Origin: Craspedostauros australis
Lineage: Eukaryota
NCBI GenBank assembly: GCA_030167865.1
Contig: JALAGF010004655.1
Span: 1 to 64,000 of the forward strand
Direction: 5' to 3'
Length of the DNA stretch: 64,000 bases
Notes under the pieces: model-generated
Databases searched by the model: none
What the model was told of the DNA's origin: nothing
Seen by the model: the letters and a program-made list of their open reading frames with translations, nothing else
Shown: positions 52,697-64,000 of the stretch, piece after piece
Numbering within the stretch: the first letter of the stretch is position 1
Layout: the number at the start of each line of letters is the position of its first letter
Position numbers and translations under genes: made by a program

Positions 52697-55600
52697 ATGG
52701 TGCGCAAGCGGTTGGACGACCGCGTCCGCGCCTTGATCGAGCGCGGCGTCGTGACGGGGGAGCGGTCCATGCTGGTGCTCGTGGGCGATCATGGCAAGGA
52801 TCAGGTGCCCAACCTGCATCAGATCCTCACCCGCACCACCATCCAGCAACGACCCAACGTGCTGTGGTGCTACAAGAAGGATCTAGGCTTCTCCACGCAT
52901 CGCAAGAAGCGCATGAAGAAGCTGCGTCGCGACAAATCGCGCGGACTCTCCAGCAACGCCTCCCTCGCGGATCAGGCCGACAACTTCGAGCTATTCGTGT
53001 CGGGAACGGACATCTCCTGGTGCTACTACAGGGACTCCCACCGCGTGCTGGGCACCACCGTCGGCATGCTGGTGCTGCAGGACTTTGAGGCCCTCACGCC
53101 CAACCTCATGGCCCGCACCATCGAGACGGTGCGCGGTGGCGGCCTGGTCATCTTCCTCATGCGCACCGTCAAGTCGCTCAAGCAGCTCTACGCCATGAGC
53201 ATGGACGTTCACGCACGCTACCGCACGGAATCGGCGGGAGACGTCGTGCCGCGCTTCAACGAACGATTCATCCTTTCCTTGGCCAAGTGTCAGAATTGTC
53301 TGGTCTGCGATGACGAGCTCAACGTGCTGCCCTTGTCGAAGCGCACCCTGCAGCGGTTGAATCCCAAGGCGTTGGAGAAGGGCGAAGCCGGCGAGGTCGT
53401 CGTGCGGGAGACGCCCGAGGAGGCGGAACTCAGGGACCTCAAGCAATCCCTCATCGACACGCCGCACGTGGGGGTGCTCGTGGACCTGGCCAAGACCCTG
53501 GACCAGGCCAAGGCGCTGCTCGTCTTCCTGGAGGCGTGTTCCGAAAAGACGACCAAGTCGACAGTTGCCATGACGGCGGCTCGTGGCCGTGGCAAATCAG
53601 CTGCCATGGGTCTGTGCCTCGCCGGCGCCATCTCGCTCGGTTACTCCACCCTGGCAGTCACGGCACCGGCACCGGAGAATCTTGTCAGCGTCTTTGACTT
53701 TCTTTGCCGTGGTCTGAAGGCGCTCAAGTACCAGGAGCACATGGATTACAACATCACGTACAATAATGCATCAGGCAGGGAGCAGACGAAGTGCATCATC
53801 GCCATCCATCTGCATCGCAGCCACAGGCAGGTCATACAGTACATCTCACCGGATGAGAAGGACAAGTTCACGTCAGCGGAGATCGTTGCCATCGACGAGG
53901 CTGCAGCCATTCCATTGCCGATCGTGCGGACGCTCATGCACCAGCCGGACCGTCTCACCTTTGTCAGTTCCACCGTCAACGGCTACGAGGGCACGGGACG
54001 TGCGCTCAGCCTGAAGTTGATCAAGGAGCTGCGAGAAAGCAAGGGAGGTCGGTCGGCGGAGCTGTCGGTTGCCAACGCGGCAGCCAACAGCATCGCCGGA
54101 ACCAGATCCAACAAGGGCCAGGCCAAGACGCATGACAAGCGCTACCAGGCAGCGGCCGCCGCGCTTGTGGATGCGTCCGGCGACAACCTCACGGGGCCGC
54201 TGCGCGAGATCGAGCTCTCCATGCCCATCCGTTACGCCGAAGGTGATGGCATCGAGAGCTGGCTCAACAAGCTCCTCTGCTTGGACTGCGGGTCCAGCGC
54301 GCAGTTGAAGCTGCAGGGAGGTGCACCGGCGCCTGGCGATTGCGAATTGTACAGCGTCGACCGCGACGCCCTCTTCTCCTACCACAAACTCTCCGAATCA
54401 TTCCTGCAGAAGCTCATGGGCCTCTACACCAGCGCGCACTACAAGAACACTCCCAACGATCTGCAAATGCTGTCCGATGCACCATCGCACAAGGTCTTCG
54501 TTCTGCTGTCACCGGCCGCAGAGAAGGATGCGAACTCATTGCCGGATATCCTGGCGGTCGTTCAGGTCGCCTTGGAGGGAAAGATCTCACGACGTGCCGT
54601 CGAAGCGCAGCTGGCGCGTGGTCATCGGTCCGCCGGTGATCTCATCCCGTGGACGATCTCACAGCAGTTCGGCGATTCCAAGTTTGCTCAGCTCAGCGGC
54701 GCTCGTCTTGTGCGAGTTGCGGTTCATCCATCGGTGCAGGGCATGGGATATGGATCGAGAGCGATCGAACAGCTCTATCGATTTTACAACGGCGACATGA
54801 TCTCCTTGGATAACATGGAGGACGATGATGACGAGGACAACAACGACGATGAGAATAATGATGGCGATGATGATGATGACGAAGACTCTGATTACGGCGG
54901 TGGCAATGCCAATGGTAGCAGCAACAAATCCAATGGAAACGGGAAAAAGGGTGGCATCCAAGAAGAAAAGGTGGCACCACGAAAGGAGCTCCCGCCGTTG
55001 CTACTTCCATTGACTGACGTCGATGCACCGGCGCTGGATTGGATCGGCACTTCGTTCGGCCTGACGGAGCAGCTGCACAAGTTCTGGAACCGCACAGGCA
55101 TGAAGCTCCTGTACACGAGGCAAACAAAGAACGAGCTCACGGGCGAACACTCTGCGATCATGATCCGCGCCCTGCCAAAGCAGTCCGGGGTTGACGATGC
55201 GTGGCTGGATGCTTTCGTCGCTGACACCAAGCGCCGATTCGTGGCGTTGCTCGGTGGAGCATTCCGCGACATGCCAATTCGCTTGGCCATCTCATCGCTG
55301 GACAACATGACATCGTCGGATGCATCGGCCGGCGACGCCAAGCGTTCTGGCATCAAGCACAGCAAGGTGACGGTCGACGAGCTCACGCAGATGATCACAC
55401 ATCACGATCTGAAGCGCCTGGAGTTGTACGGTCGCAATCTTTGTGATCACCATCTCGTCACCGATCTATTGCCGACAGTGGCCCGACTATTCTTCATGAA
55501 CCGTCTCGGTGACACCTTCAACCTCTCCAGCGTCCAGTCCGCGTTGCTGTGTGGCATCGGATTGCAGAATCGTGATGTCGATTCCATGACGAAGGAGCTG

Positions 55601-56125
55601 GGACTCCCTGCCAACCAAGTCCTCGCGTTGTTCAACAAGGCCATGCGGAAGGTGTCGATCGCCCTCAACGGTGTTGTTGAAGACGAAGAGAAGAAGGCAT
55701 TGCTCGGCGGCGACAAACGTGCCAAGGTGGAAGCCAAGGTCAGCAAGATGCGTGACGTTGCTGGCAAGACGTTGGATGAGGATGCGGCTGACGCTGCCCA
55801 GGATGCCATGGCCGAATTCAACGGCAATGGCAGCAACGGCGCCAACGGAAGGAAGAAGAACAATGTGAAGACTCTGCGTGCGGATGTCGCGAACGACGAG
55901 TCCATCATGCAGTACGCCATCAAGGGGAACGATGAGCAGTGGAGCAAGGTGCTGGACGGAAAGACGTTGGACGGAACTGGAACTGGCACTGTGCAGATAC
56001 AAAGCGTCCGCGACAAGCGCAAGGCCACCGACGAGGATGACTACACCCGTGAGCAGGATGGTGAGCCAACACCAAAGAAGTCGAAGAAGAAGGGTGGCAA
56101 GAAGAAGAACAAAGGAAGACGATAG
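52697..56125 (+). CDS. NAT10: RNA cytidine acetyltransferase NAT10/Kre33
   Basis: VLWCYKKDLGFS, LQDFEALTPNL.ARTIETV.GGG, TAARGRGKSA Walker A, DEAAAIP, HYKN.PNDLQ, GNAT RVAVHP..QGMGYGSR; basic C-terminal NLS. Confidence 0.97.
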   Translation: MVRKRLDDRVRALIERGVVTGERSMLVLVGDHGKDQVPNLHQILTRTTIQQRPNVLWCYKKDLGFSTHRKKRMKKLRRDKSRGLSSNASLADQADNFELFVSGTDISWCYYRDSHRVLGTTVGMLVLQDFEALTPNLMARTIETVRGGGLVIFLMRTVKSLKQLYAMSMDVHARYRTESAGDVVPRFNERFILSLAKCQNCLVCDDELNVLPLSKRTLQRLNPKALEKGEAGEVVVRETPEEAELRDLKQSLIDTPHVGVLVDLAKTLDQAKALLVFLEACSEKTTKSTVAMTAARGRGKSAAMGLCLAGAISLGYSTLAVTAPAPENLVSVFDFLCRGLKALKYQEHMDYNITYNNASGREQTKCIIAIHLHRSHRQVIQYISPDEKDKFTSAEIVAIDEAAAIPLPIVRTLMHQPDRLTFVSSTVNGYEGTGRALSLKLIKELRESKGGRSAELSVANAAANSIAGTRSNKGQAKTHDKRYQAAAAALVDASGDNLTGPLREIELSMPIRYAEGDGIESWLNKLLCLDCGSSAQLKLQGGAPAPGDCELYSVDRDALFSYHKLSESFLQKLMGLYTSAHYKNTPNDLQMLSDAPSHKVFVLLSPAAEKDANSLPDILAVVQVALEGKISRRAVEAQLARGHRSAGDLIPWTISQQFGDSKFAQLSGARLVRVAVHPSVQGMGYGSRAIEQLYRFYNGDMISLDNMEDDDDEDNNDDENNDGDDDDDEDSDYGGGNANGSSNKSNGNGKKGGIQEEKVAPRKELPPLLLPLTDVDAPALDWIGTSFGLTEQLHKFWNRTGMKLLYTRQTKNELTGEHSAIMIRALPKQSGVDDAWLDAFVADTKRRFVALLGGAFRDMPIRLAISSLDNMTSSDASAGDAKRSGIKHSKVTVDELTQMITHHDLKRLELYGRNLCDHHLVTDLLPTVARLFFMNRLGDTFNLSSVQSALLCGIGLQNRDVDSMTKELGLPANQVLALFNKAMRKVSIALNGVVEDEEKKALLGGDKRAKVEAKVSKMRDVAGKTLDEDAADAAQDAMAEFNGNGSNGANGRKKNNVKTLRADVANDESIMQYAIKGNDEQWSKVLDGKTLDGTGTGTVQIQSVRDKRKATDEDDYTREQDGEPTPKKSKKKGGKKKNKGRR

Positions 56126-56572: not shown

Positions 56573-59488
56573 CTATCGCCTGGCATTGAAATCAGGAGCC
56601 GGTAGGCCCAGCACCGCCCGGAGGCCACGGCTCAGCAGACGCTCTCCGAGGCGCACGACGAACTCATTGGCCGCCACTTGCACTTTTGGCTCTTGCGCCA
56701 GCTTGCGCACGATGGGAATGAACTTGGACACGTCCGTGTCGGTGGCGCCAGTGTCGAGGAGCTCGATGATACGGCTGAACCGTGCCATCGTGGGCGGCAT
56801 GTTGGGCAGCGAGGTGCGCACGTCCTCGGCCACGTTGCCCTGCTGGGAGATGAGGCGTTGGAAGGTGCGGAAAGCACGCACGGCGGTGACCTCGTCGTTG
56901 ATGGCGAGCGCGGCGGACGCTCTGGAGAGGTATCCGACGGTCTCCGCGCCCAGACTGTCGGTGGCTTCGACCAGCTGATCGGAGAGGTCGGTCAGGAGGA
57001 GGCTACCCTCGTCCGAGATGATGTAATCCGTCAGAACGTCCAGCGCGGCCAGGACGTCGTATCCCGAAGACGATTTGGCCTCGTCCAGGAGGCTTTCGAG
57101 ACGGTTCCATCTGATTCTGCCGTCGCTGGTGAGTGCCAATCGCTTGAGGGCTTCGTGCATGTCATCCTGCGGATCCGTCAAGACACGGCTGGCAACGTAG
57201 GGGTAGGCATCGCTGATGATGCGCGACGATGGTTCGACCTGAATGGCGACACCCTCTAGGACTCCAAGGCAGCGGATGATGGCGATGTAGAAGGGTGGCA
57301 ACGAGAATGGGTAGGTGTACATGATGTCCCCAAGCGAGTTGATGACATTCTTGAAGTTGAGCTCCGAGACGTCAGCATTGAGGACGTCAGGAAGCGCCTT
57401 TTCGAGGGCTGCCTTGATGGGCTCCACATCAGTGTCTTCCGGAATGAACCCCAAGCGTTGGTAGACCCGGACGAGCTGATCCCAATCACGGTTGACGATG
57501 TGCACCACGGCAAGCACGAAGCCATTGCGCTGAGATCGGTCCGCGTAGGAGACCATTCCGAAATCCAAATAGCAGAGCTTGCCATCGGGACATGCCAGCA
57601 GATTGCCGGCATGTGGGTCTGCAAATTGAGAGCAGTGTGGCATTGTGAGCAAAGGGACGAGCGGGCGAAGGAACTTTGATGTATCACGTCTGGCTGTGCA
57701 TGAAGAGCATCAGCACGTCAGCCTCCAATACGAGCAGGCTAAATCCGTCATGCAACACACAGGGCATGTGCTGACGCAATCCAATGTAGCACGATGAAAC
57801 ACAATTAAGTACACCCTACGCTCCCTCAGCATACTCTTCCACAACATGCACCTCCTCAGCATGCTCCTCCCACAAGTACGAGTATACTCACCAGCATGAA
57901 AGAAGCCATTCTCAAGGATCTGCTGCAGACTGCACTGCACGAGACAGTCGATGAGCTTCTTTGGTTCCAAGCCGTACCGCGCCAACGCGTCCGTATCGCT
58001 GATGCGCACACCGTCGACCCACTCCATGACGAGGACCTTGCGCGTTGTGAGATCGGAGTAGACCTTGGGCACGAAGACGTCCGTGACGCCGGCATAGAGC
58101 TCGTTGAATCGCTGTGCGTTGGCAGCCTCGGCAACGTAGTCGATCTCACGGTAGATGAGGTCGCCGAAATCGTCGATGATGGACTGCACGTTGATATCGC
58201 GGTTGAGGAATTCGAAGAGCTTGTTGTAGACGCCGCTCCACCAGCGCAGGACGTAGAGATCGAGCGCAATGATCTGCTCGCAGTTGGGACGCTGGATCTT
58301 GAGCGCGACGGTGTCGCCGTTGGCCTTGAGGCGGGCCTTGTAAACTTGCCCGATGGAGGCGGCCGCGATGGGTTCGTCCTCCACGAGCTCGAATATGTCG
58401 TCGAAGTTGACGCCGAGCTCCTGGTCGACGATTCGGAAGGCGAGGTCGTTGGAGAAGCGCGGCACGTCGTCCTGGAGTTTCTGCAGTTCGTCGAGGTACT
58501 CCGAGGGCAGGAGATCGGGACGGCTGGCCAACGCCTGACCTGCCTTGATGATGGCAGGACCCAGACCGGAGATGGCCTGTTGGAGCTGCGCGGCACGCTT
58601 GCGCCTTTGATCGCTGGATTTGGACTTGCCCATGAGGAAGTCGAAGACGACGCCAGCAGCCCACAGGCCGAACGGTCCGGCGATCTGCACGTTGCGCACG
58701 AGCCACTTGGTGGGCTGTCGGAAGAGCAGCTTCTCCGCTGCAACGGGATCGTACTTGACGAGGGGTTCTGCAACCTTGACACCTCGTCGGAATGCGTATC
58801 GCGTGACGACATCACCGCCGTCCAAAAGGCCGTTGACCCACACGTTGTCGTCCACGACGATCTGCGAGCCGTCGCCGTTGACGCCCGCATCGAGTGACGA
58901 CGATGGCCCCACCGCGATGCCATGATCGCTGGAACCGTTGGCACTGCCATTGACGCTGCCATTGCCAATGATCGAAGCATCAGCGTTTGCATTGAGGTTG
59001 GATTTGGTCAATCCGTTCGGAGGCAGAGGAGTCATTCTGACGGTCGGCAGGGAGGGCGACGGAGACATGAGCGACGCTTCCTGATCCGCCGCCAGCTGGT
59101 CCAGAAGCTTTCTGGCCTTTTGAAGCCGAGGGGAGTAGGGCTGGTCCTTCCTCCTGCGTTCCCATTTTGTGCCAACTGCGTTATCTGCCGCTGCATCGGA
59201 GGATGGCTGTCCATCCTTGCTGCCTGCATTGCTGCCTGCATTGCTGCTCGCTGTGGATGTCTCCTTGTCCAACGAGGCAACGTTCAAACGCCATTGAGAG
59301 GCAAACCCAGCGTTCCTCGACGCCGCAGCCGATGCCACCGCAGCCGAAGGAATGCGCCGAGGGGATGGAGCCACGAAGGCATCGCAGGTGGAGGGAGCAG
59401 CGACGGCAACAGTGGCTGCCACCACCATCAAGACGCTCCACGATGTCATGATCATGCTCGTGGATCGTATCCGCTGCCTTTCCTCCAT
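56573..59488 (-). CDS. ABC1/UbiB (AarF) atypical kinase, probably plastid-targeted; 2 exons, intron 57891-57619
   Basis: LGPAIIKAGQALASRPD, LQDDVP, AAASIGQVY, VALKIQRP, EIDY..EA, MEWVDG; splice joins GFFHA-DPHAGN; LDFGM; CDAFVAP presequence. Confidence 0.93.
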
Positions 59489-60792
59489 CTTGTTGTGTTT
59501 CTCGCTTTGCTTCTCTTTTGTTGATCCCAAACCTGCTTCCTTCGATCGACTGTTCCTTAGCTGGGATGTCGTTCGGATTATGATTGCATCATCAAGCAGT
59601 CCCAGAGAGGCCGAGATGTGCAAGCCGAAGGGCGGAAGATGCGCCGCGTGGTGCGTCGAGGTGTTTAGTGGATGTCACGCGTCTCGCTGACGCGAAATGA
59701 AAAGAAGGTGAAGAAGAATGAGCATCTGTTCCCGAGATCAAGGAGGACTGGTTCGTGATTAAATATTTGAATCGTGTTTGTTGGGGCTATGTATGTCAAC
59801 AATACAACACACTATCATGACTCCGGATTCCAAATTCCAGCTGAAAGAGAAGAAATGAGTTTGATTTCTTGACTAACGGCTATATTTTCATATATATATT
59901 AAGTCATTAATGAGTACATAAAACGACGCGAACCCAATGATCTATGTGAATGCATCGGCGTGCGTTAGAATCGGCGAAACACTGGAAGACAAACAAACCT
60001 CGCCACATGATGAGCATGTCCAACAACATGAACAGAAACAACACATTCTGCGTGTGACAGTGCGCCACAGTGCGCGAAGTATTGCGGCAGCACGTTGTTG
60101 GTGTTCTTTGTGATGTAGTGATGTGAGCAGCAGCAGGTACGTATTGGTAGCGCGAGGTGTTGTCATTGCGCGGGCGTTTAGTTACCTACCAGCACTCTAC
60201 GCGGCTGGGAAAGGAGCCTCGAAGCCAAGAGTGGGAGCAAGTCAGGTGAGCCAAACACAGCGACAACGACAAACACAACAGCCGAGGCATGCCAAGCCAA
60301 GCCAAGCCAGAATTCAAAAAGGAGAAGGACAAGTCCTCACCCAACCGAAAGCGCCGTGAGCAGCCTCATCGATCAGTCAAGAGAAACACACCAACAATAG
60401 CGGCAACAACTGCGTACTCGCAATCCAAGAACATTCCAACATCGACCACAGTGATAACAACGATAACAACGATAACGACAGCACCAGCACTCACCTTTGT
60501 TGTTCCCACCATCAATAGCATCAAAACAAACCCCTTCAGCAGTCTACTATACATCACCATCGCTGCACACCACCAAAACACAACACACTTTCATCGCCTC
60601 ATCATTCTGCTTTGCAGCTCCAGCATTCTTGACTTTGTGATAAAAACAGTAGCGTCAACCACAGCATCATCATTCGAAGCGACATTCAAGCAGCAAACTG
60701 CAGATAGCAACGACTGAACAATCAATTCAACACCAACGACGCACGTCACACAAAGCATCAATTACACACGACACATCACAGCATCAGCAATC

Positions 60793-61854
60793 ATGGAGCG
60801 TTATTTGGATCAGCAGGCAAACAATGATGCCTACGACGAGGGAAATATCAGCTACCCATGCCCAGCGTGGGCCCCAGTTGTCGGATTCACAGGAATAACC
60901 TGCGCCGTCGTCTTTGCCAGTGAGTCTACCATCGCTTCATTTGATGGATGCGTTCGCGTGATGCAGTGACGCAAATGGATACAATGTGCGCAAGTGCATC
61001 GCATGGCTATTCAGCATGGAGGCGCATCGGCTTCAAATGCGTGAGCGCACGCGTCTTGAGATCTGCGTCTCAGAATTGTGGCCAAACAGAGAGAACTTGT
61101 TCCTTTGTGCACAATGCTGCACTCATGGTGGTCCACATGCAGCAAGCCGCAATGCCATGTTCTTTTCTGTTTCGCTGTGTTCTGCGACAACTGCACCATC
61201 ACTCTGCTCGTAGCTCACCCAGTACGCCCTCCTCTCCCATTTGCCACAAACTCATGCACCATCATCGCAACGACACGTACGATGATACTTTGGGTCGACC
61301 TCATTCATCTCCGCTCTAACAATATCTCACTAAAAAACGCAGACATCGGCGGAGCTTACGGTACCGCCAAGGCAGGACAGGGTATCATGGCCATGGGAAT
61401 CCGATCGCCGGACCTCCTCATGAAGAACATCATTCCAGTGGTCATGGCTGGTGTGCTCGGAATCTACGGACTCATCGTCGCCGTCATCTTGAACGGAAAA
61501 TTCACAAGGCCTGAGGTCGGAACTGGCCTGTCAACATACTCACAATATACTGCTTTCGCCCATCTCGCGGCCGGTCTGTGCTGCGGCTTCACGTCGCTGG
61601 CATCTGGTCTCGCAATTGGTATTTCTGCAGATGCCGGTACACGAGCGATCGGTGCGCAATCCGCAATGGCCGCCTCGTGGAAGAAGATGGGTTTCACCGG
61701 CGACTCCGGCGGTCAGGAAAGCGGCGCCGGTGATGCTCTCTTCGTCGGTACCATCCTCATCCAGGTCTTCGCTTCCAATCTTGGACTTTACGGACTCATC
61801 ACAGCGCTCATCGTCTCCCAAACGACCTACTCCTGCAGCTCTTACGACGAATAA
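60793..61854 (+). CDS. V-type ATPase proteolipid subunit c-like, lacking the TM4 glutamate; 2 exons, intron 60920-61342
   Basis: CPAWAP..GF..AVVFA-N-IGGAYGTAKAG, MKNIIPVVMAGVLGIYGLIV, AHLAAGL..LASGLAIG, LFVG..FASNLGLYGLI; GTGAGT donor and CAG acceptor in frame. Confidence 0.93.
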
Positions 61855-62526
61855 GTGCACACAGGATGAACCAACCAAGACAAGGCGGCGGCATGGGCGC
61901 ACTCACAACACGACGATTACTCCAACGCTTCGGCGTGTCCAATAGCGCAGCCCATCACCGCGTCTTTCCATGTCACATCCAGTCAAGTCTTATGTCATGC
62001 CATGTTCAGTGAACAACACATGACCATCCTCCACTTGATTTTGAAATGCCTCGTTGCGGTACCAAGATGCTGCTGCTGTTGCCAAACCGTTGTTGACAAA
62101 GACACAGCACAATGGGACGCTATGCGACGGAACACAATAAAAGGGAGGGTGTACGAACGATCGTTGGATCGAGATAGATCATCCTGTCGGTGATCCACCT
62201 CCACCAGCCGAAGTTTGCAGATGCCTGACGTACCCCTCTCTCTCATGATTACCCTACCAATCAAAGTACTCTGCTACCATGCACCGAATGGCAAGCTGCG
62301 CGTTGCCGCGATGCGATGGGGGCAGGAGCATCAGGCAATGTTCCAAACCTACAGTCACAACTACAACCACTGATAATAGCCCAAGCACAAATGTAAAACA
62401 AATGTCTCACTCGAATCATCCAGATTGCGCTTTCCCCACATTCACATGAAGTTGCAATGTTGTCACATTCGTACCAGACCGTCGCAATCGTATCGTTGGA
62501 GGAACGCTTGATCGACCCATTCTACA

Positions 62527-64000
62527 TTATTGATCCTCCCTGCAAACCACTCGTTCCAGGAACATCCGCCTCGCGGCATCGGTGAGGATCTCATCCAACG
62601 CCAAGTCCTCGCTCATGATCTTGTACTGCTCCTTGGACAGGTACTCCTCTGGCGACCAGCTCGCTTTGGCGATCCCCGCCGCCCCCAGCTTGTTCGTCTC
62701 CTGCCCATCATCTCTCTGGTACTGATTGATGTGCGGCCGCACACGTTCCGTCAGCGGATGCGTGTCTTCGAAGCCAAGCACCTTTCGCACGTGATCGGGG
62801 GCGTACGCCAGCCATTCCATGACCATAACGAGATGGAACTTCGCCACCGTATCCAATGCCTGTCCCAGAATATCACGCCGGGTTTGCACGGAGGCATCGT
62901 CCATCGCAGCTTGAATCTTTTTGCGCACGTGCTTGTCGGTGAAGGTCCATGTGTACACGTTGGCGAGATCCTTGCGATGTTCCCACCATTTCTCAATCAC
63001 CTTGATGCGGCAACCCTGTTGTGCGTGTACCATCGATGGACGGTTGGGTGGATGGATGGATGGATGGAACATGGACAAGTGTTAGTGAAAGCAGGACAAC
63101 AACGATGGAGGTACAAACATGTGGAATAGTATCGTGCGCAAATTCGCTCAACCAAAAGCGTGGTGTACATACTCGTACAGTCCCTAACACTGGACAAGGA
63201 AAGCATTGGACTCACTCTGTCTTCGATGCATTCAAATCGAAACTGCGACAATGCCCGATGCAACGGCTTGCGGAAGGAGGTTGCAAAGACGGCCGGCAAA
63301 TCAAAGAACCTGTTCGATTCGAAGGCATCCCATTCGTTGCCCAGAATCTTGTGGTGCTTGGCATGCATGTTCGTGACGATTTCTTCATTCGTCCAGTACG
63401 AGAAGCAACCTGCGCAGCGTTGCTGCTCGTGCGGCCTCGTGATTTTCCAATGATAGTCGGGCATGCAGTAATACGAGGGAACTTCGTTTTTGGGCAGGTT
63501 GCGCTCGGCCAGCGCGCAGAAATTGGTGCCGCCGGCCTTGCGCAGGTGCTGGAAGAACAGGAAGACGTCGGGGTCGTCGACGAATTGCAGGATCATGTCC
63601 ATCTTGCGTTGGTTGGGAAGCGTGATGCGCTGATCGGGGCATGGGAAGAGTTCCTTCAATTCTTCGTGAGTCAGGAAGGCCTGCTTTTGCGACTCCTGGT
63701 CCAGCAGCTTGCGTTCGAAGGTGCGGACGCCGAAAGGATCCTCATCATGCAAGGTGCGCAACACGTCGGTGGGTGTCATTGCAGCTAGGTCCATGACGAG
63801 TTCTTTCCAATCGGGATAGGTGGCAAGTTTCCGTCCATTTTTCTGTTGCATTTTCTTTTGCCGTGGCTGCTCATTGTCTGACTTGAGTTCTGACGTATCC
63901 ACTGGTTGTTGCATGCGGCTGCTTGCTTCCTTGACTTTGGGGACAGCACCCTCCATACGAGCAGTGGGTTGATGCATGAATGCCAGGCCATCCTGTTGGG
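62527..64000 (-). CDS. Golgi-type sulfotransferase-like protein, 5'-truncated by window edge; intron 63215-63016
   Basis: FFQHLRKAGGT (5'-PSB loop), SFRKPLHRALSQFRF (3'-PB); splice joins ECIEDR-GCRIK; frame stays open to the window end. Confidence 0.8.

Follow-up and report, generated by a model that had tools for sequence, protein, structure and literature searches.

The stretch of DNA analysed here (the window) comprises 64,000 nt of Craspedostauros australis contig JALAGF010004655.1 (GCA_030167865.1; positions 1-64,000, forward strand). [quoted passage not shown] The gene belongs to an old, conserved family of c-type proteolipids that are unable to carry a proton, here called family A. The explanation we favour, and to which we give about an even chance, is that the protein is a structural, proton-blind subunit of a mixed V0 ring and would lower the number of protons moved per turn. 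To our knowledge, the mid-membrane carboxylate has been treated as defining and indispensable in every rotary-ATPase c subunit. A full-text literature search, whose coverage does not extend to diatom V-ATPase work in subscription journals, gave no description of a Glu-less c subunit in diatoms or in any eukaryote.

TM4 of the window protein reads ...LFVGTILIQVFASNLGLYGLI..., and HMMER places a Ser opposite the Glu of the LILIFAE[A/V]L[A/G]LYGLI segment of solved c subunits. This residue, Ser187 (TCC, 61774-61776, +), stands at the proton-carrying position both in the HMMER alignment to solved c and in the comparison with homologues, so that the mid-TM4 Glu that makes subunit c (K02155) a proton carrier is absent. 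Two nearby residues are also changed. Gln183 (CAG, 61762-61764, +) lies one helical turn ahead of the former Glu site (position -4), where canonical c has Leu, and Asn188 (AAT, 61777-61779, +) lies at +1, where canonical c has Ala. In the alignment, both residues are invariant across 61 sequences of family A and 34 of a second Glu-less family (family B, described below), whilst Leu and Ala are found at these positions in 25 of 25 canonical sequences. TM2 of the window protein, PVVMAGVLGIYG, contains no Glu, and its MAGVLGIYGLIV segment is identical in all 61 family A and all 25 canonical sequences. The product has 13 acidic residues (2, 6, 12, 15, 16, 66, 100, 139, 163, 168, 173, 211 and 212), all of which lie at termini, in loops or at helix ends of an AlphaFold2 model and none of which is mid-membrane. 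In the solved eukaryotic proteolipids that were matched (c, c' and c''), a mid-membrane carboxylate is present in every case. Since the window protein lacks the Glu feature that defines c, c' and c'', it should not be annotated as a proton-carrying c subunit. A sequence-only reading of this DNA, made from the letters alone, had already described the Ser codon with its neighbouring Gln and Asn and the lack of a compensating Glu; the codons, the HMMER alignment and the structural model, which was also its suggested check for another mid-membrane acidic residue, all agree with it.

The change is shared by every family A homologue listed. A homologue search with exon 2 returned 6437 proteins at E <= 1e-10, and the figures given here rest on the 120 listed, which are 78-100% identical to exon 2 and cover 89-100% of its length. 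All 120 carry the TM4 motif Q-V-F-A-[S/G]-N (Ser in 61, Gly in 59, Glu in none) and the W-K-[K/R]-M-G-F core of an insertion in the loop between TM3 and TM4 (SWKKMGFTGD in 110, SWKKMGFSGD in 6, SWKKMGFTGE in 3 and SWKRMGFTGD in 1). The family A names listed are Cylindrotheca fusiformis, Attheya septentrionalis, Epithemia clementina, Nitzschia sp., Fistulifera solaris, Seminavis robusta and Odontella aurita, with the incomplete 'Cyclop...' and 'Odontel...'. The named Ser-bearing members are diatoms that we take to be raphid pennates; Gly is found in the remaining members and in family B, and is therefore probably the older state. Among 61 full-length members there are 80 invariant columns, including Gln183, Asn188 and Trp155 to Phe160. 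The window protein is 74-82% identical to the other 60 and has every feature by which the family was recognised, namely Q-V-F-A-[S/G]-N, W-K-[K/R]-M-G-F in loop 3-4 and a canonical TM2. An unused, lipid-facing site would be expected to turn hydrophobic, as in TM2, and not to stay invariant and polar. Given the motif in all 120 listed homologues, the altered site is constrained rather than degenerate.

At the DNA level, the Ser is always TCN (12 sequences, including the window) and the Gly always GGN (22 sequences); these 34 codon-scored sequences are those with a detectable motif among 80 metagenome loci and the window. Of the 80 metagenome loci retrieved with exon 2, 28 that were collinear and family-A-like served for the analysis of selection, and L018, L029, L031-L033, L036 and loci at 51-57% identity (other paralogues) were left out. 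The frame is open in 28 of 28 orthologues, Q-V-F-A-[S/G]-N is present in 28 of 28 and WKKMGF in 27 of 28. Between the window gene and these orthologues, the proportions of nonsynonymous and synonymous differences are pN = 0.11-0.16 and pS = 0.71-0.90, the synonymous sites being saturated. The ratio of nonsynonymous to synonymous substitution rates (dN/dS, or omega) has a median of 0.070 (range 0.039-0.100) in the 15 pairs with 0.05 < dS < 1.5. An omega of ~0.07 indicates purifying selection and rules out a decaying copy.

The gene starts with an ATG at 60793 (+). Exon 1 (60793-60919, +) encodes the lumenal N-terminus and the start of TM1 (residues 1-42 and the first base of codon 43), and is followed by a GT..AG intron of 423 nt (60920-61342, +). 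Translation and PF00137 place the remainder of TM1, TM2, TM3, the loop insertion and TM4 in exon 2 (61343-61854, +), which ends in a TAA stop codon (61852-61854, +). A single contig of run X1 spans 60700-62000 and omits exactly 60920-61342, with 0 differences otherwise; it has the Ser codon and carries the loop insertion in frame. Run X1 is not on record as RNA and its kind is only guessed; the intron is missing from its contig. After splicing, the predicted product agrees letter for letter, and continuously over the junction, with a 212-residue protein (P0003; labels UniRef, MMETSP and EukProt) named as Craspedostauros australis. The X1 contig and the transcriptome label together give good evidence that the transcript is spliced and that it contains the Ser codon and the in-frame insertion. 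An incipient pseudogene or a sequencing or assembly artefact retains next to no probability, since the X1 contig shows no differences, an identical protein comes from an independent source, the change is present in 120 of 120 listed homologues, omega is ~0.07 and all 28 orthologue frames are open. The sequence-only reading was thus right that the gene is otherwise intact with a canonical intron and that the Ser is unlikely to be a sequencing error, and the outcomes it had named as damaging, a Glu codon in reads or transcripts and relaxed selection, were not what the X1 contig and the dN/dS values gave.

The fold is that of a c subunit. Exon 2 contains two stretches that match Pfam PF00137 (ATP-synt_C; E 1.1e-22), with a score of 80.4 bits where the cut-off is 24, and the closest solved structures are V-ATPase c and c' subunits (E 1.1e-29 to 2.6e-24), with c'' at 4.9e-14 or weaker. 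The AlphaFold2 model of the window protein, based on a 120-sequence alignment and with a mean predicted local distance difference test (pLDDT) score of 83, has four long helices at residues 27-60, 65-94 (with short breaks), 110-157 and 171-200, and no fifth helix. The best Foldseek matches of this model are V-ATPase c chains, with target-normalised TM-scores of ~0.86-0.93 (yeast and mammalian ~0.91; Citrus). Like canonical c (yeast Vma3, ATP6V0C, plant VHA-c; PF00137, K02155), the window protein is built of two PF00137 hairpins and so has four helices; its identity to 25 sequences closely related to canonical diatom c, some of them raphidophyte, is 59-64%, and it shares with canonical c a conserved Cys near each terminus, the whole of TM2 and the Gly and small-residue positions of TM1 and TM3 that serve in ring packing. 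Unlike canonical c, it lacks the TM4 Glu, shows Gln at -4 together with Asn at +1, carries a 24-residue loop insertion that lengthens TM3, and has a longer N-terminal tail.

The insertion, SAMAASWKKMGFTGDSGGQESGAG, occupies 24 codons (61660-61731, +) of the cytosolic TM3-TM4 loop, where canonical c is gapped at product residues 149-172; in the solved-structure alignments, 25 query residues between the two aligned stretches are unmatched. The first estimate of ~20 residues, made by the sequence-only reading, was correct as to the presence of the insertion and slightly short in its length relative to canonical diatom c. The product, at 212 residues and 21.73 kDa against 168 residues and 16.88 kDa for canonical diatom c, has neither the short loop nor the ~155-170 residues that characterise subunit c. 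In the model, TM3 extends into the insertion as far as Lys157, and residues 158-170 form a low-confidence loop (pLDDT 59-71 per block). In a model of canonical diatom c, which is of low confidence (mean pLDDT 63) and was used as a weak comparison for helix limits only, TM3 ends at the equivalent of Ala144 and is followed by a four-residue loop; the shorter TM3 and loop are consistent with the solved-structure alignments. On this comparison, the insertion would add ~13 helical residues and a 13-residue loop. The termini of c subunits are lumenal and loops 1-2 and 3-4 are cytosolic; by this established topology the insertion sits at the cytosolic end of the ring, the side capped by subunit d. 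The alignment also shows an N-x-S sequon in the N-terminal tail (N18-I-S20; 60844-60852, +), with the Asn in 90% and the Ser in 89% of the 61 family A sequences, which is missing from canonical c. As the tail is lumenal by the same topology, the protein could be an N-glycosylated ring subunit. A hidden or unspliced second intron was considered as the source of the insertion and rejected: the X1 contig runs collinearly across the insertion, which preserves the reading frame and is kept in 120 of 120 listed proteins and, at the DNA level, in 28 of 28 metagenome orthologues.

A canonical Glu-bearing c of ~168 residues exists in diatoms, as seen in the P0134 search (named, for example, in Nitzschia inconspicua and Amphora coffeiformis). 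The relatives in this search are mostly 82-100% identical and come from these two species, Bacillariaceae sp., 'Chaet...' and raphidophytes. All six canonical c sequences inspected contain ...ILIFAEALGLYG..., and the diatom canonical c P0432 has an identity of 89-99% with 18 of the 25 closest canonical sequences. Judged by within-group identity (74-82% against 89-99%), family A evolves faster than canonical c.

A second Glu-less family, family B, was found in diatoms and in their sister group, the Parmales, by a search for representatives (3371 proteins at E <= 0.001, 150 listed) and by the P0130 search (959 proteins at E <= 1e-20, 120 listed). Among the 120 listed in the latter, 111 have the VL[I/V]QVFxGN motif of family B, one belongs to family A, three are fused double c proteins with Glu (nematodes, 'Symbi...') and in five TM4 is unreadable. 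Examples of family B are P0130, P0285, P0288, P0291, P0319, P0345, P0314, P0328, P0335 and P0369, and the names listed are 'Aulaco...', Ditylum brightwellii, 'Cyclop...', Fistulifera solaris, 'Astr...', Eucampia, Phaeodactylum tricornutum (two genes, 168 residues each), Parmales sp. scaly parma, Triparma strigata and Triparma columacea (two genes). Both families are present in Fistulifera solaris and in the 'Cyclop...' transcriptome. Family B shares with family A the derived changes S53A, A130S, L183Q, I184V, E187G/S and A188N relative to canonical c. It differs from family A in an invariant TM2 Asn (MAGVNGIYG), in having always Gly at 187 with TM4 as VL[I/V]QVFAGN, and in its Lys/Gly-rich loop 3-4 inserts, which may be absent (P0345) or as long as many tens of residues, where family A has the fixed SWKKMGF. 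The sequence-only reading, which had seen one odd gene, therefore missed the scale of the phenomenon: a diatom-wide family and a second Glu-less family that reaches the Parmales.

The Glu position was also counted in 142 aligned rows, comprising the query and 141 listed representatives of <=350 residues. Glu is present in 79 rows, Q...[S/G]N in 9 (including the query) and Q...S-A in 2 (P0141 and P0142); 21 rows have a gap, and the remaining rows are apparently truncated or mis-predicted. P0141 and P0142 are, with P0257 and P0174, further c-like proteins without the Glu (LIQGT[A/G]SALGMYG, LIWSFGSALGLYG, VMSFAGATALYG); as these two share Gln at -4 and Ser at the Glu site with family A, the loss may extend beyond diatoms and Parmales. 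P0138, P0155, P0151 and P0226 keep the TM4 Glu and have an acidic, Asp/Gly-rich insert in loop 3-4 and a Trp-rich TM1 (WGSAWGTWKSG). The long loop 3-4 inserts of the Glu-bearing P0138 and P0155 suggest that such inserts are compatible with a carboxylate-bearing paralogue. Proteins of ~300-330 residues with two full Glu-bearing c units in tandem (P0324, P0332, P0338, P0392-P0399 and P0128) are named for several nematodes, two plants and the 'Symbi...' transcriptome, and could be true fusions or merged gene models.

Two trees, both unrooted and of ~160 columns, were made. A quick tree of 66 chosen rows (19 family A, 18 family B, 20 Glu-bearing representatives and 9 others), with the trait columns included, gave families A and B as sisters with a Shimodaira-Hasegawa-like approximate likelihood ratio test (SH-aLRT) value of 93. 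For a more careful tree of 58 rows, named canonical sequences were added, the insertion and TM4 motif columns were removed, and the long-branch P0174, P0226 and P0257 were dropped, as were the Glu-bearing P0134, P0137, P0177, P0193, P0200, P0223 and P0231, plus P0391, P0277 and P0286. In this tree, family A forms a clade (98/88), inside which P0126 and P0176 lie on a long branch, and family B forms a clade (100/99) in which the four Parmales sequences are a subclade (100/99). All 18 canonical rows are split from families A and B, P0138/P0155 and P0141/P0142 at 92/89, which places the Glu-bearing P0138/P0155 on the side of the Glu-less families and not on that of canonical c. The branching order among these four groups was left without resolution, and the exclusive sister grouping of A and B, which appears only with the trait columns, was not recovered after their removal. 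The 38 Glu-less rows lie on one side of one branch, with weak support (68/0); a single loss of the Glu would be the simplest reading of this tree. Since Parmales sequences fall within family B, and A does not branch from inside B, family A probably predates the diatom-Parmales split, as far as an unrooted tree can indicate.

In the arrangement we favour, the family A subunit would sit between canonical Glu-bearing c subunits in the V0 rotor ring and pass subunit a with them. Each copy, however many a ring might hold, would leave one empty ring position, so that one H+ fewer would be moved per turn and the H+/ATP ratio would be lower. With Gln183 and Asn188 both invariant, the empty site would stay polar, and their amide oxygens could satisfy the stator arginines while the blind site passes; in the available sections of a study of yeast Vo, Arg735 and Arg799 of subunit a are described as dominating the interface, and removal of c'' Glu108 lowers the simulated rotation barrier by ~40% (PMC7541076). 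The conserved cytosolic TM3 extension and loop motif could bind specifically to subunit d or to some other partner, and the subunit would then hold a set position in the ring, like yeast c' and c''. Complex prediction placed the window protein between two canonical c chains with an interaction prediction score from aligned errors (ipSAE) of 0.62 against 0.00 for the best control, a mark reached by 51 of 78 solved complexes and by 2 of 108 mismatched pairs. Its own TM1 and TM2 are predicted to lie against TM3 and TM4 of one neighbour, and its TM3 and TM4 against TM1 and TM2 of the other, with at least 91% of contacts common between runs and a partner pLDDT of at least 71. Because c rings have already been solved, this pass may reflect likeness, and it indicates that the packing surfaces are alike rather than proving binding. 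The proposal of the sequence-only reading, a non-catalytic ring subunit that lowers H+/ATP, is thus still the best explanation, albeit one for which the complex prediction passes by likeness.

Diverged c paralogues at fixed positions, the role proposed here, are found in the mixed ring of yeast as fungal c' (Vma11) and c'' (Vma16), both of which retain an essential Glu (c' Glu145, c'' Glu108; PMC7541076, in the parts available) that the window protein lacks. In c'' (Vma16/ATP6V0B) there is also a fifth helix, and the Glu is on the TM2-equivalent helix; the window protein has neither and matches c'' more weakly. The TM4 Glu of c' (Vma11) is likewise absent, the scores do not group the window protein with c', and c' is fungal, whereas the named family A members are all diatoms. 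A further likeness is to the c1 subunit of the Acetobacterium woodii F/V hybrid and to archaeal multi-hairpin c subunits, in which, according to the accessible portions of PMC9171764 and 10.64898/2026.10.01.756066, hairpins that bind no ion function in the ring and set the ion/ATP ratio, with fewer ions per ATP. The A. woodii rotor is described as nine one-site c subunits and one V-type c with a single site (PMC9171764, same portion), and chain 4bem_J is a weak Foldseek structural match to the window protein. However, these subunits keep at least one carboxylate per polypeptide, whereas the whole four-helix subunit is blind in the window protein, and they belong to bacterial or archaeal synthases, whereas the window protein comes from a eukaryotic pump family.

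Several points weigh against a proton-blind gearing subunit. Membership of the window protein in the V-ATPase is a prediction, and no experiment or proteome places it there. The Glu residues of yeast c, c' and c'' are reportedly each required individually, and one chemically modified c is said to be able to halt an F-type ring, so a blind subunit might stall the motor instead of regearing it. The modelled TM3 extension of ~13 residues and 13-residue loop would rise where subunit d sits and subunit a passes, and a clash is conceivable. The co-occurrence of canonical c and family A rests on other diatoms and not on C. australis itself. One blind subunit in ~10 shifts H+/ATP by only ~10%, a small gain for such conservation. 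The proteome of the Thalassiosira pseudonana valve silica deposition vesicle (SDV) contains, in the available part of the source, seven V-ATPase subunits including one 16.9-kDa proteolipid, B8BTR9 (PMC9894196). Both canonical c (16.88 kDa) and family B proteins without an insert (16.96-17.07 kDa) agree with this mass, whereas family A, at 21.73 kDa, does not. Proteolipids are poorly detected by mass spectrometry, however, which tempers this last point.

The evidence for ring packing (motifs, fold and complex prediction) applies equally to a subunit that acts in the ring as a brake or parking site or serves in assembly only, with the empty polar site or the protrusion stopping or limiting rotation. 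With such a subunit, V0 would be inactive or sealed, which could serve to store it, to prevent leaks or to regulate its activation; alternatively, the subunit would act in the endoplasmic reticulum as a nucleus for ring assembly. Yeast Glu mutants are reportedly inactive, and the conserved protrusion on the cytosolic face could conceivably serve as a stop. Position-specific stops do exist, as the autoinhibited yeast Vo rests at the contact of c'' Glu108 with Arg735 of subunit a (PMC7541076, available sections). However, the site is equally empty in family B, where the insert may be missing (P0345) or many tens of residues long, so the protrusion is independent of the Glu loss, and the Glu-bearing P0138 and P0155 also have a long insert. 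A pump poison should also need tight expression control, and we consider a brake or assembly role unlikely. The V-ATPase may also be the wrong context altogether: family A, alone or with family B, could form a ring or bundle of its own that acts as a pore, fusion factor or scaffold. The carboxylate, the sole tie of c to rotary catalysis, is gone, the invariant loop motif suggests a dedicated partner, and large-conductance pores have been reported for c rings (PMC4838861, in the part available). This idea sits poorly with the outer faces of TM2 and TM4, which meet lipid and subunit a and are near-identical to canonical c except at 183, 184, 187 and 188; no reason is evident for a free pore to keep them, nor is there a sign of another partner, and we regard it as distinctly improbable.

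A more radical possibility is that the amide-lined, carboxylate-free pocket carries a neutral polar cargo with each turn, such as silicic acid into the SDV. The pocket combines the invariant Gln183 and Asn188 with a residue at 187 that is small in every case (Gly or Ser), and family B adds an invariant TM2 Asn at a similar depth. The named members are from diatoms and Parmales only, which are silicifying lineages, and silicic acid is the obvious candidate as the SDV silicon importer is stated to be unknown in the sections of PMC9894196 available. Against this, the idea derives purely from three residues, the taxon range is a single clade and so does not discriminate, and the half-channels of subunit a are proton water wires (PMC7541076, available sections); Glu-less c-like proteins outside families A and B (P0141 and P0142) exist as well. 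We consider it a very long shot.

Two ancient, strongly selected families, A and B in diatoms and B in Parmales, are entirely without the carboxylate. Diatoms account for much of marine primary production. According to the available parts of PMC9894196 and 10.1101/2022.05.26.493626, they need their V-ATPase to form the silica wall, and the enzyme has been located around the plastid. If the family A protein is a ring member, diatoms would have the first eukaryotic rotor with built-in blind positions, the H+/ATP gearing would be set genetically and possibly in a compartment-specific way, and there would be a natural experiment on a V-type motor turning past a whole uncharged subunit. This can be tested directly, as genetic tools exist for both P. 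tricornutum and T. pseudonana, the former of which carries family B genes. A 2026 comparative study counts a K02155 16-kDa proteolipid among 'known' silica-wall-associated proteins (PMC13403384); this protein, like B8BTR9 (16.9 kDa, from the T. pseudonana valve SDV; PMC9894196, available part), could be of either the canonical or a Glu-less form.

The window holds no tandem paralogue: in tblastn, queries taken from families A and B, from canonical c and from group C all matched this gene only. A Pfam search of an open reading frame at 63000-63998 (-) gave no match. The two neighbours of the proteolipid gene have no link to V-ATPase and provide no informative context: an RNA cytidine acetyltransferase of the NAT10/TmcA type at 52697-56122 (+), with four Pfam domains at E down to 4.5e-93, and a two-exon ABC1 atypical kinase at 56576-59674 (-).

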